Of a DNA stretch of 64,000 nt, positions 44,632-51,644 are shown piece after piece. The DNA is from a bacterium (GTDB taxonomy: Bacteria > UBA8248), in assembly GCA_965213685.1 (NCBI GenBank), contig CBDBZY010000016.1, forward strand, positions 1 through 64,000, given 5' to 3'. The position numbers and the translations under genes are program-made. Below the pieces are notes generated by a model. The model was not told the DNA's origin. It was given only the letters and a program-made list of their open reading frames with translations, and searched no databases. The first letter of the stretch is position 1, and each line of letters opens with the position of its first letter.

Positions 44632-47600
44632 ATGGAGAGCTACCAGCCCAAACGGAGGTACTTGCACACCTCGGCACAAGTGGGAAGTAAAGTGATAGTG
44701 TACAGCGGAGTGACGGTAGACGATACAGTAGAGAAGAGGAAGCGCTTGGCCTCCATGGTGGAGGTCTTCCATCCCCACAGCGAGCACTGGGAGGCCAAGC
44801 AATCCAATGGACAGACCCCAGCACCAGGGCTGCGCGGTGCAGCCAGCGCAGTAGTCAACGACCAGCTGTATTCGTACGGAGGGAGAGATGGTGACGGCAA
44901 CTTCCTTCATTCCTTGCACCAGCTGAGCGCCAAGACCTACGAGTGGCGCGGACTGAACGCTAAAGGTCCTGCATCACCAATGCCGAAATGGGGTGCGGCA
45001 ATGGTCGCCTGCGGGGACGGTCTAGCGCTCTTTGGAGGCTACGGCGTACCACGCGGCCCCACCCAGCGCGCCTCATCGCTCATCAAGGATACCGCGTACA
45101 CTGACGGCAGTGGGTGGACCAATGAGTTCCACATCTACCACCTCAATGAAGGTATGCATACATGTACAACAATGACTAGAATTTGCAGCTTGCCTTTGGT
45201 TGTTTGTTGTTTGGGTATACATTACCCCAGCTCTTCCCAACACTGTTGGCTTTAGGCTTTTGAGGTGCAGGTTTTCCCTAGGGTGTAGTTCTGGTGTTTG
45301 TGGTGGATGTATTCTGAAGCCACAATCACTAAGGGCTCACCTTGGGGTACTTAAACCAGTGGTGCTAGAGCAGCTTGTACAGTCATGGTGCTGATGAGAG
45401 GCAACCAGCTTGAAGCAGCTGTCTGCCATTGCCTGGCTTGCTCTGGCCCACCTGATTTGATCATGTACATACATGCACACTGTACTCACTGAACTGCACT
45501 ACAACATGTGTAACACTTTTGCATTGATGGCTCCCTGTAGCTAATGAGTGTAGTACTGCTGTTCCCATTCCTCATTCTGCTATGGCATGTTAGCACTCCC
45601 CACACTGCAGGTGTGTGGAGCTCCCCTGCCACCACTGGAGAGAGACCTCCTCCGTGTTCTGACTTCTCCCTCACCTCCATAGACCATAAAAGAGCTGTCT
45701 TCTTTGGAGGGTTCAATGGAGAGCGGGGCAAGATGAATGATGTGTACATCATTGACCTACAGAGTATGGTATGTGAGCTGATGAATTATTGATTGCTGGT
45801 ACAGCATATGATGTAGTACATGTATCTTGTACATATTGGTTACAGAGCCCAGACAGACATGTGTGAGTGTTGCATGGGCTCATACATGTGTGTCTGGGCT
45901 GTGCAAGTTATTTGTTGTCAGTTGAGGCTGGTATAGGGTTGCAGCTCTGTTTGCAGTAGTACAAGAGATATGACTAATGGGTTTGCATTGTGTAGCAAGT
46001 TCCAAAAATAGTGTCATTCCCAAGATTTGTCCCTGCAGCGTTATTTATTGCACTAGCCTTAACTCCAGCGGCCAATGTGTTATCTGGTACACTGTGTTGT
46101 GCATTGTGGATTGAGTGCATGTAGTATTGCTATGGCCAGTACAGCTGTCCTGGTAGTGAACTACAGTGTGCATACTGCAGCAGATGGTGACGTGTGATAG
46201 TGTAATGAATGGTTAGCTTTATGCAGCATATATTGGGTCAAAGGTGAAATGGGAGGCACCTGGAGTGGTGGCTAGTGTGTGTGTGTGGCAGTAGAAAGGT
46301 TGGCAGTTGGAATGGTGGTGGAGAGACAGTTTTCCTTTCCTTGTTAAAGCTTATTGATACGTGCAGGGTTTGATACACTTGACGTGCAATATGGCCTGTG
46401 GCAGTGGATGGGAAGAGAAGTTGGTCTCTGTTTGTGTAGTTATATGCTGAACTGTCTGTCACTGCAGCACTGGACCAAACTCAACAAGTCAGGAGGAGGA
46501 CCTTGGCCAGAGGAGAGGTCATGGCATGCTGCTTGCAGTCTGAACTATGGCGAGCAACACCCTCAACTGCTGGTCACTGGGGGATGGGGCAGACAGAACA
46601 GACAGGGCAAGGTACTGGGGGATGCCTGGATTCTGGATGTGGACAGTGGGAGGTGGAGGAAGGTGAGGAGGAAGTGTAGCTGTACTGCACACTCTGTGAT
46701 GGTTACTATACACATAGCATAGTCCTGTGGTAGTGCTTTGGCTGATTGAGTGCATCAGATAAAAGAGGTAGTGAAGTGCTGCAATGTAGCCTGAGACAAT
46801 GCTGTGGCATTGTATGCCTGTATGTATGTAGACAGTGTGAGTTATGTTACATGTGCATAGCACATGTACTGGGTAGTGCTGAACACACTGTCTGTGTAAC
46901 ACTACAGTTAACATCTCTCCCCTCCAGGTGAGGGACACTCTACAGCCTCACTGGGGACACTCAGCATGTGCCATACAGATTGGCCCTAATCTGACAGAGG
47001 TCATCATGTTTGGAGGGAGGAACCTCCTGAATCGTCTCCTGGATCGTCTTGGAGGCACTGTGCTGGCTGATACAACTGTACTGCAGTTCAGTGAGTGGTG
47101 TGGGGTTTGTAGAATGTGTGCTGACGAGGGAGGGGAAGAGGGAAAGTGTGGGAAAGGGGAGATTGGGAGGAGAGAGTAGGGACGGGAGGCATGAGGAGGA
47201 GTGGGAGGGAAGGGAGCAGGTCATGTGATGAGCTATTAGCACTGCCTTACATCAGTAAATAACTAGGTGAGGAGCCACCTGTTAAATCAGGCTTAGTTGC
47301 ATTGCCTTGCCTTGGATTTGTAAGCCAAGCAGCTGGGCTGCCTTGGTAGCTGAGTTGGTAGAGCACTGGCCTAGACAGCCAGTGGTTGGTGGCAGGTTTG
47401 AATCCTGTCCGGGGCAGCTCAGTGTTGTCTGCCTTGGATGTGTGCCATTTATGATTTGAGCATGGACATACATGTATGTACACATTCCAATTAGTGTGCA
47501 ATAATTGATATTTTCTTTTTTGATTGCATTCCCCTTTGTTTTGCATGCCTTTAGTCTTATCTATGGCTGCCTGTGATACACACAGTCATAATGTAATGAC

Positions 47601-50600: not shown

Positions 50601-51644
50601 GTAGCTGCAAGCTCTTTGAGTCAACACGACACGCAGCAACACTTCACCATCTCGACCACCACTCCTTTTTAAAGTGCACCATCACAGGCCAAGATTGTGA
50701 GGTGAATGACTCCCACAAGATCTGGATACAAGGTGAGGAGGGAGGGAGGGAGGGAGGGAGGGAAGGAGGAAGGGAGGGAGGGAGGGAGGGAGGGAGAGAG
50801 GGGGAGAGAGAGAGAGAGAGAGAGAGAGGGAGGGAGAGAGAGAGAGAGGGAGGGAGAGAGGGAGAGAGGGAGGGAGGGAGGGAGGGAGGGAGGAGGAGGG
50901 AGTGTGGTGGCCCAGGTATGCATGGGCATGAGAGGAGTGGTGGCCTCACCACAGTGGTTGTGGGTTTGTGGGGGCTATAGAGCAGGATGCTGTTGCCATG
51001 GTTATTCCTCTGGTGGGCACCAGTGTACACGCATGTACATGTCCTTTGACCTTTCCCTCTCTGTGTGTGCCCCCAGTTGTCCCCTCAGCTCCTCAGGAGG
51101 CCACTACCTGCACTGCTAGTGACCCATCACCTCATCCACAGCCACCCACCCCAGCACCTGGTATGGGCATGTGCTGATAGTCATGTGTCTTGTGTGGTTG
51201 CCCCCCTCCCCTTCTCTCACACCACACAATGCTCATGTACATATAATGTGTGTATGTTCTTACAGTGCACATACAGTGTGTGTGGGTGCTGCTGTCTAGC
51301 AGTTGTCTTGTGACACACATACTCCATTCCCAACCTCAGGAAGCCGTCCTGATCTGATTGAGCTGATTCGGTTCAGAGGCAGAGAGAGAAGAATCAACAT
51401 CCCACAGGAGGTGGGCACCCACTACCAGCAGTTCGGCATCTTACTGCTCAATGACCCCACGGGCAGCCAGGTGGAGAGCATTGTCCATGAGTGCCGAGGA
51501 AAGTCAGACGACATTAACCTAAAGATACTACGCCACTGGTTGGAGGGGAAAGGAGGGTCGGTGACCTGGGAAACACTTGTGGAAACACTGGAAGACATCG
51601 GACTCAGAACACTGGCACAGGACATACGAGATGTTAAACTGTAA
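44632..51644 (+). CDS. Kelch(6)-Roc-COR-Death protein, copy 2, predicted intact, 1195 aa
   Basis: Exons 44632-45151, 45611-45768, 46468-46662, 46928-47090, 47819-47911, 48663-50732, 51077-51160, 51340-51644; all GT-AG with compatible phases (1,0,0,1,1,1,1); total 3588 nt; no internal stop seen. Confidence 0.85.
47333..47422 (+). mobile_element. tRNA-derived SINE-like element in intron 4 of copy 2
   Basis: Homologue of 27867-27956; A box TAGCTGAGTTGG. Confidence 0.6.
48663..50732 (+). CDS. Roc GTPase-COR exon of copy 2
   Basis: Same G motifs (GIMGSGKT, DTGGQ, GTHRD) and COR motifs as copy 1. Confidence 0.87.
51340..51644 (+). CDS. Death domain exon of copy 2
   Basis: ILRHWLEGKGGSVTWETLVETLEDIGLRTLAQDI then TAA. 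Confidence 0.85.

Follow-up and report, generated by a model that had tools for sequence, protein, structure and literature searches.

Does the DNA between positions 44632 and 51644 (+ strand) of the 64,000-nucleotide stretch presented above encode a single protein that joins a Kelch propeller to a Roc-COR GTPase and a death domain, and if so, what would such a protein do? The stretch, here called the window, is the first 64 kb of a contig (C16) in an assembly of 7.97 Mb and 71 contigs that is filed as prokaryotic. We consider it reasonably likely that the locus is an intact sponge gene, and that its product is a sensor-switch-effector protein (Kelch + Roc-COR + Death) belonging to a large family amplified in tandem.

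An earlier note on this DNA had proposed eight phase-compatible exons coding for 1195 amino acids, with six Kelch blades, Roc and COR domains, the GTPase motifs GxxxxGKT, DxxGQ and THxD, a proline-rich linker and a terminal death domain, and with no kinase, unlike DAPK1. Rebuilding the gene independently from open frames and splice sites gave a protein of identical length, encoded by eight exons with a joined frame of 3588 nt (1195 codons and one terminal stop), and the proposed domains and motifs were all recovered, as described below. All seven introns are of the GT..AG type, all seven junctions are in frame, and the ATG at 44632 is the first of its open frame, 12 codons past an in-frame stop. 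The exons are as follows.

44632..45151, + strand: exon 1, start codon (first ATG) and Kelch blades 1-3; 173 codons plus 1 base, GT donor, Pfam PF24681
45611..45768, + strand: exon 2, Kelch blade 3/4; AG and GT sites in compatible phase, PF24681 at 6.8e-10 and 39.1 bits (below the cutoff of 50)
46468..46662, + strand: exon 3, Kelch blade 4/5; AG and GT sites, phase 0-0, Pfam Kelch_3 at 29.2 bits against a cutoff of 22
46928..47090, + strand: exon 4, Kelch blade 6, with a phase-1 end; AG and GT sites, weak Pfam Kelch_4 match (E 0.0089)
47819..47911, + strand: exon 5, a 31-codon linker, phase 1-1, flanked by (CT)n; AG and GT sites in compatible phase; the least certain exon
48663..50732, + strand: exon 6, Roc GTPase and COR-A/COR-B as judged by AlphaFold, Foldseek, profile and G motifs; 2070 nt, phase 1-1
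51077..51160, + strand: exon 7, a 28-codon proline-rich linker, phase 1-1; AG and GT sites, 31% Pro
51340..51644, + strand: exon 8, death domain as judged by profile, Pfam on paralogues, AlphaFold and Foldseek, and TAA stop

The frame of exon 6 is unlikely to have arisen by chance, since it lies within an open frame of 852 codons, evolves under constraint relative to its paralogues (ratio of nonsynonymous to synonymous substitution rates, dN/dS, of 0.33-0.45) and has 198 relatives at E<=1e-3. The peptide of exon 7 is 100% identical in the upstream paralogue within the window (copy A, described below) and in contig C57. Exon 5 has no Pfam match; among the four paralogues in which it is present, its identity is 90-100%. 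Across the gene model, Pfam found no kinase, leucine-rich repeat (LRR) or ankyrin in any exon and no NACHT or NB-ARC match, and the 1195-aa protein contains no transmembrane-like segment (best 19-mer Kyte-Doolittle mean, 1.52). A (CT)n microsatellite adjoins the acceptor of exon 5 (47737-47824) and a long GGGA/GA-rich repeat starts at the donor of exon 6 (50730-50906); similar repeats occur throughout the window, where they give rise to long spurious open frames.

By sequence, exons 1-4 encode a six-bladed, KLHDC2-like Kelch propeller. Exon 1 scores 70.2 bits against the KLHDC2-type Kelch family of Pfam (PF24681, cutoff 50), with weaker Kelch matches for exons 2-4, and its best solved relatives are KLHDC2 (3.7e-14) and KLHDC3 (5.6e-13). 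Six blades can be recognised by eye, five of them by hydrophobic-GG signatures and one as an SG blade. The window protein therefore resembles KLHDC2 and KLHDC3 in having a six-bladed propeller of the same Pfam family. KLHDC2 and KLHDC3 bind C-terminal degrons and have a Cul2/Elongin box region after the propeller, which the window protein seems to lack.

For Roc, COR and Death on the window copy, Pfam alone was set aside and profiles and predicted folds were used instead. Exon 6 was aligned with 33 homologues of 42-84% identity, and in all 34 sequences the key residues of the P-loop (GIMGSGKT in the window), the switch-I motif YxSTG, DTGGQ and THxD (THRD in the window) are invariant. The best solved relatives of the family profile are the Roc domains of LRRK2 (7e-4), which are collinear with it at G1, G3 and G4. 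An AlphaFold model built from the 34-sequence alignment (pLDDT 74.6, pTM 0.77), disordered at exon 6 residues 100-163 and 484-505, was compared with the PDB using Foldseek, and all 25 listed matches at E<=1e-3 were Roco proteins. They include the LRR-Roc-COR protein (6hlu_A, 3.7e-12) and the Roc-COR tandem (3dpu_A, 1.9e-11) of C. tepidum, LRRK1 (1.2e-10), many LRRK2 entries and M. barkeri Roco2, whereas translation factors and small GTPases appeared only at E above 2e-3. The alignments to Roc-COR tandems extend over ~700 columns at 9-14% sequence identity, and a chain consisting of COR only (3dpt_B) was also matched (1.4e-6, TMt 0.63). Furthermore, a hypothetical protein of the sponge Ephydatia muelleri that is found by the profile (E 6.8e-115), the only one with a name among ten relatives looked up by cluster, passes the Pfam threshold for COR-A (39.4 bits, cutoff 35.3). 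The fold matches, the profile and this sequence bridge to COR-A together establish the Roc-COR identity, and by fold and motifs exon 6 is a Roco-type Roc GTPase with a COR domain, for which GTP binding is predicted. The earlier note had allowed for the absence of any Roc or COR fold, which is not what the models returned.

The window protein thus shares the fold of LRRK1, LRRK2, the C. tepidum Roco protein and M. barkeri Roco2 across Roc, COR-A and COR-B, and with LRRK2 also the Roc profile and the THxD form of the G4 motif. It differs from them by its low identity (9-14%), by lacking LRR, kinase and WD40 modules and by having a death domain as its output. In the Roc domain, switch I and G3 are separated by an insert (exon 6 residues ~56-163, window ~48830-49150). 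It is made up of two predicted helices followed by ~64 disordered Pro/Ser-rich residues, and in a profile comparison its helical part weakly resembled XPF helix-hairpin-helix domains (E 0.005). Weak AAA_16 and AAA_22 matches in relatives were considered and rejected as P-loop noise; they are not STAND domains.

Exon 8 is a death domain according to sequence profile and model, and homotypic assembly can be predicted for it. The first solved relatives of its profile are the death domains of Fas (3.1e-5), FADD, PIDD, TRADD, ankyrin and RIPK1, and Pfam Death is found in 10 of the 16 paralogous copies in the same assembly (best 1.6e-8). AlphaFold predicts a six-helix bundle (pLDDT 96.9), for which the top Foldseek matches are death domains, FADD being matched with a TMt of 0.73 and a root-mean-square deviation of 2.6 A at an E of ~0.03, this being a small domain. 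The lack of a death fold, likewise foreseen as a possible outcome, is therefore not observed.

Roc-COR and Death occur in one polypeptide. This link is direct, since 55 of the 124 homologous open frames run uninterrupted from Roc-COR and end in an exon-8-like death domain. The link to the Kelch exons is drawn from gene order, exon phase and the lack of start codons. The order of Kelch exons, Roc-COR exon and Death exon is seen at three C16 loci and again at two on contig C4, and it is kept in a distant subfamily that forms a 15-copy tandem array on contig C18 (7939-772980, - strand, period ~45-50 kb), where Kelch exons lie upstream and death-domain exons downstream. The big exon of this array is only 24-26% identical to exon 6 by tblastn (27-31% in another comparison), and matches to exon 1 (n=13), exon 2 (n=12, 42-56% identity), exon 3 (n=14) and exon 8 (n=7) are found in the same order and on the same strand. 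These matches end at the predicted exon ends, that of exon 3 spanning residues 1-65 of 65. For one C18 copy an in-frame join can be made as well: its exon 4 stops at the same residues, followed by a GTGAGT donor of phase 1, and the acceptor of its Roc-COR exon is likewise of phase 1. From its upstream stop to the P-loop, the Roc-COR frame is also devoid of Met codons in copies A and B of the window and in 14 of the 15 other copies examined (12 of 13 on C18 and both near paralogues), which means that the Roc-COR exon cannot be the first coding exon. Among the C18 copies, the 27 residues ahead of the P-loop are near-identical. Taken from the sequence, the fusion of Kelch to Roc-COR-Death is probable. 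It is quite likely that the domains of all eight exons are carried by one soluble polypeptide of 1195 aa, and with the same assurance we would place them in the order Kelch, short linker, Roc, COR-A/COR-B, proline-rich linker and C-terminal death domain.

The window itself is sponge host DNA that was binned with a bacterial genome. It contains introns, retroelement-like frames and microsatellites, and parts of it are contained in sequencing runs labelled 'sponge metagenome'. The contigs of the assembly fall into two classes. One, with a GC content of 0.61-0.69, is free of (CA)n microsatellites; the other comprises 22 of the 71 contigs, C16 among them, with a GC content of 0.33-0.54 and (CA)n runs in 20 of the 22, and on account of these two properties it represents eukaryotic (sponge) host DNA. 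The lengths of these 22 contigs, added by hand, come to ~4.9 Mb, which means that an assembly of 7.97 Mb filed as prokaryotic carries ~4.9 Mb of host DNA. In the assembly table it is listed as 94% complete with 3.7% contamination, as a prokaryotic genome.

Judged by sequence, the family is very large; its members join a divergent Roc-COR core to death-fold modules (DD, DED, ZU5) and are missed at standard Pfam Roc/COR thresholds. The 198 relatives were found in a word-indexed search with the big exon, in which 8000 candidates were scored; among the 120 matches listed, 118 come from ENA and 2 from JGI. An exhaustive profile search gave 3039 clusters at E<=1e-3, 2016 at 1e-10 and 789 at 1e-30. 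Eight relatives of the Roc-COR core were examined with Pfam, which recognised DED-DED + Death in P0126, ZU5 in P0227, Death in P0125 and P0139 and nothing in the other four. The longer annotated relatives of the Roc-COR exon are four, namely a 1583-aa frame with a non-Kelch N-terminus, two ankyrin-Roc-COR-A proteins and an uncharacterised kinase/Death protein of Halichondria panicea that is 23% identical to the exon. When related loci were sought elsewhere, 47 pattern matches in genome contigs and 595 in metagenome contigs were obtained, none of which was confirmed.

Exon 6 is under purifying selection, with a dN/dS of 0.33-0.45 in six of six paralogue pairs from the same assembly. Purifying selection also acts on exon 1, which exists as two deep types separated by a synonymous divergence (dS) of 0.67-1.08, compared with 0.03-0.13 within a type, and exon 8 likewise has two deep types with a dS of ~2 or more between them. 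Since copies A, B, C and E between them hold all four pairings of the two exon-1 types with two exon-6 types, paralogues have recombined. The lengths of exons 5, 6 and 7 are all divisible by three and each of these exons is of phase 1-1; the linker, the Roc-COR module and the Pro-linker are thus cassettes that can be exchanged or dropped without loss of frame. Copy D on C4 (8144-14409, + strand) may illustrate this, as it has exons 1-5 and then a death-domain exon ~2.9 kb downstream, with no Roc-COR exon and no exon 7; all its junctions are of phase 1, and hence the frame of a Kelch-Death protein would be kept. An orphan copy of exon 8 lies at C4:20099-20398.

The earlier note had also spoken of tandem amplification with turnover, and this is borne out by the several loci on C16 and C4, by the C18 array and by the transposon-broken copy A. 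The other features of the window are the following.

10518..31908, + strand: copy A, the upstream tandem paralogue, broken; same exon order, exon 6 open and 94% identical
34171-~43400, - strand: Mind bomb-like gene, with RING at 34171-34635 and ankyrin repeats at 36310-38602
~1-10000, - strand: Mind bomb-like gene, first copy, with Mind bomb SH3 repeats at 4159-5616
~55000-64000, - strand: Mind bomb-like gene, further copy

In copy A, exon 3 is frameshifted (split over two frames), and exon 4 lies in two parts, 17297-17398 and 27589-27654, with ~10 kb inserted between them. By eye from the translations, its intron 3 and exon 4 hold long minus-strand frames (window 12861-26011); within the copy there are frames resembling retrotransposon gag, protease, reverse transcriptase and integrase (12861-16910 and 20978-23384, - strand) and a hAT/ZBED-like transposase frame (18611-20436, - strand). 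The Mind bomb-like gene, which encodes a putative E3 ligase, adjoins the gene copies on the opposite strand with its RING end pointing away from them, and it seems that the two genes duplicate as one unit.

One of the closest known systems is DAPK1, for which passages of a review (PMC6320773) describe a Roc-COR followed by a C-terminal death domain and a link to cell-death signalling. The window protein has the same Roc-COR and C-terminal death domain, but where DAPK1 has an N-terminal Ser/Thr kinase, a calmodulin site and ankyrin repeats it has a Kelch propeller, and its Roc domain is very divergent with the disordered insert of ~64 residues. Since no kinase or ankyrin is matched by Pfam, the window protein does not appear from its architecture to be a DAPK1 orthologue; a Roc-COR structure of DAPK1 did not turn up among the solved relatives. 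Nor is it a STAND receptor, as NACHT and NB-ARC are lacking and its nucleotide domain is predicted to fold as Roc. In invertebrates, kinase-less Roc-COR proteins with Death, CARD or TIR share with the window family a Roc-COR core joined to a death-fold or TIR adaptor module. The nearest protein-atlas clusters in Mollusca have Roc in 92%, Death in 63% and COR-A in 62% (Death in 56-63% of members in some clusters), and the nearest cluster in Porifera has COR-A in 48%, Roc in 40% and CARD in 26%. Part of an immunome paper on Aplysia (PMC9334734) lists TLR-, MyD88- and TIR-ROCO proteins. These proteins, all hypothetical and uncharacterised, pass the Pfam Roc/COR thresholds that the window family does not, and none is reported or listed with Kelch. 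Kelch has been noted in Dictyostelium Roco proteins in a section of the review mentioned above (PMC6320773).

NLRs and Apaf-1 are similar in combining a repeat sensor, a nucleotide switch and a death-fold effector. Their switch is a NACHT or NB-ARC ATPase, while that of the window protein would be a Ras-like Roc GTPase with COR, and the domains run in the opposite direction, since the window protein has its sensor at the N-terminus and its death fold at the C-terminus. Large lineage-specific expansions in sessile marine animals are a further likeness. That a GTPase takes the place of the STAND ATPase had been suggested by the earlier note; the layout and the death-fold context of relatives (DED-DED + Death, ZU5, Death) agree with this parallel, but the concept is already in print. 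In a passage of Kaur et al. (PMC8195603), a Roc/COR 'AP-GTPase' displaces the STAND NTPase between variable sensor and effector in prokaryotic systems, and huge death-fold expansions with unique architectures are noted in Amphimedon. In brown algae, LRR-ROCO proteins are candidate immune receptors with exon-shuffled sensors, according to portions of PMC11378527, where about forty ROCO domain combinations in animals are also mentioned. As far as these portions go, the algal and prokaryotic systems share with the window family a variable repeat sensor N-terminal of Roc-COR, a variable C-terminal effector, exon-based diversification and a GTPase in place of the STAND NTPase. The window protein differs from these systems in that its sensor is a Kelch propeller spread over four exons and not one LRR per exon, in its death-domain effector and in being from an animal. 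We found no description of a Kelch-Roc-COR-Death protein in the literature, although Figure 2 of PMC11378527 and the source data of PMC8195603 may list one. To call this a new receptor family is therefore an overstatement: Roc-COR proteins that lack a kinase and carry Death, CARD or TIR already figure in databases for molluscs and sponges, and the concept is not new, while the architecture, the size and the Pfam-invisibility of the sponge family appear to be undescribed.

How might such a protein work? In Roco proteins the cycle of the G domain is tied to COR-mediated dimerisation, and death domains form homotypic oligomeric signalling platforms. By analogy, we propose that the Kelch propeller would bind a ligand or partner, that the nucleotide state of Roc together with COR-mediated dimerisation would set a threshold, and that the death domain would then nucleate a homotypic death-fold assembly, recruiting adaptors, kinases or caspases. 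The layout may be seen either as that of NLRs and Apaf-1 with a GTPase switch or as that of DAPK1 minus the kinase, and the family would diversify by tandem duplication and by recombination between paralogues. From the architecture alone we infer a possible immune or cell-death function, and copy number, tandem arrays, decay and module recombination would, by comparison with other families, favour a conflict-related role (immune, symbiont or allorecognition).

Several observations weigh against an intact gene for the fusion protein. On the window copy itself, Pfam gives 19.5 bits for Roc in exon 6 (cutoff 27), does not detect COR-A or COR-B there, and gives 19.6 bits for Death in exon 8, below the cutoff of 22.6. 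None of the sequencing runs listed for 44500-51800 is of RNA, and the four that were aligned to the locus (X1, X4, X7 and X8) consist of assembled DNA contigs whose coverage takes in introns and exons alike (29-30 of 30 bins); the 'joints' within them are short skips whose ends are not splice sites and which probably stem from paralogues. No AATAAA or ATTAAA is present within 960 nt past the stop (51645-52600), and the Kelch exons 2-4 have a dN/dS near or above 1, calculated from very few substitutions, which perhaps reflects relaxed constraint and is no proof of positive selection. Exon 1-5 sequence is found in none of the 124 homologous open frames, which are single-frame calls in which spliced partners cannot show; Pfam finds Kelch in none of the 20 longer relatives examined, and it is absent too from P0121, which has the same core behind a non-Kelch N-terminus. 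Kelch is therefore not general to the family, and no single uninterrupted frame shows the fusion. An in-frame ATG also lies three codons from the end of exon 5, where a Roc-COR-Death isoform lacking Kelch could begin. With these points in view, the locus might consist of two adjacent genes co-duplicated in one tandem unit, a KLHDC-like Kelch gene (exons 1-4) and a Roc-COR-Death gene starting at the exon 5 ATG or at an unrecognised exon. In favour of this, read-through from exon 4 into the intron meets a stop after ~30 codons, and other N-termini do exist in the family, such as DED-DED in P0126 and a non-Kelch region of 760 aa in P0121. Nevertheless, two genes are unlikely, since collinearity is kept in at least 13 copies of a subfamily that is ~25% identical, in both subfamilies exon 4 ends with a phase-1 donor that suits the phase-1 acceptor ahead of Roc-COR, the Roc-COR exon lacks a start codon of its own in nearly all paralogues examined as well as in copies A and B, and all seven junctions are in frame. 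Moreover, a search for longer relatives of exon 1 (304-2000 aa) returned only two fungal proteins of 23-30% identity and no close stand-alone Kelch.

A gene that joins all eight exons could still be an unexpressed or decaying duplicate, with the working genes elsewhere. The broken neighbour, copy A, the loss of the Roc-COR exon from copy D and the missing poly(A) signal would fit this, but the window copy has eight open exons with intact splice sites, keeps all its G motifs and shows a dN/dS of 0.33-0.39 against paralogues at a dS of 0.09-0.30, which makes this reading very unlikely. A serious rival, though a less likely one, is that the product is indeed one Kelch-Roc-COR-Death protein but, instead of being a receptor for pathogens or non-self, acts as an endogenous regulator of the kind of DAPK1, LRRK1, LRRK2 and MFHAS1, in apoptosis, vesicle traffic, ubiquitin signalling or the cytoskeleton, its propeller binding a host protein. 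KLHDC2 and KLHDC3 are the closest solved relatives of the propeller, a Mind bomb-like E3 ligase gene adjoins each copy, exons 1 and 6 are under purifying selection, and the characterised animal Roco proteins all act on host pathways, at least in the sections of PMC6320773 that treat them. However, huge numbers of copies arranged in tandem, with decay among them and modules recombined, typify conflict-driven families more than housekeeping regulators, although this is evidence of pattern only. We therefore prefer to regard the locus as an intact gene for a sensor-switch-effector protein of a family that may be conflict-related.

We tentatively extend this reading to the sponges as a group, in a form that we hold to be possible but doubtful. 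Sponges may have massively expanded a class of cytosolic receptors whose switch is a divergent, Pfam-invisible Roco GTPase where NLRs have a STAND ATPase. Sensor cassettes (two Kelch exon-1 types and other N-termini) and death-fold cassettes (two DD types, DED and ZU5) would be shuffled via phase 1-1 exons, giving recognition diversity for symbiont, pathogen and allogeneic cues, possibly in concert with the neighbouring Mind bomb-like E3 ligases. Surveys of ROCO proteins that use the Pfam Roc model, as described in part of PMC11378527, would miss this family, for which the family profile finds 3039 clusters. Sponges filter water and are home to dense communities of microbes, the sensing of which inside cells is poorly understood. 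If the proposal is correct, there would be a second class of nucleotide-switch receptors beside the NLRs, with hundreds to thousands of divergent copies, and the DAPK1-like Roc-COR-Death unit would be placed deep in animal evolution.

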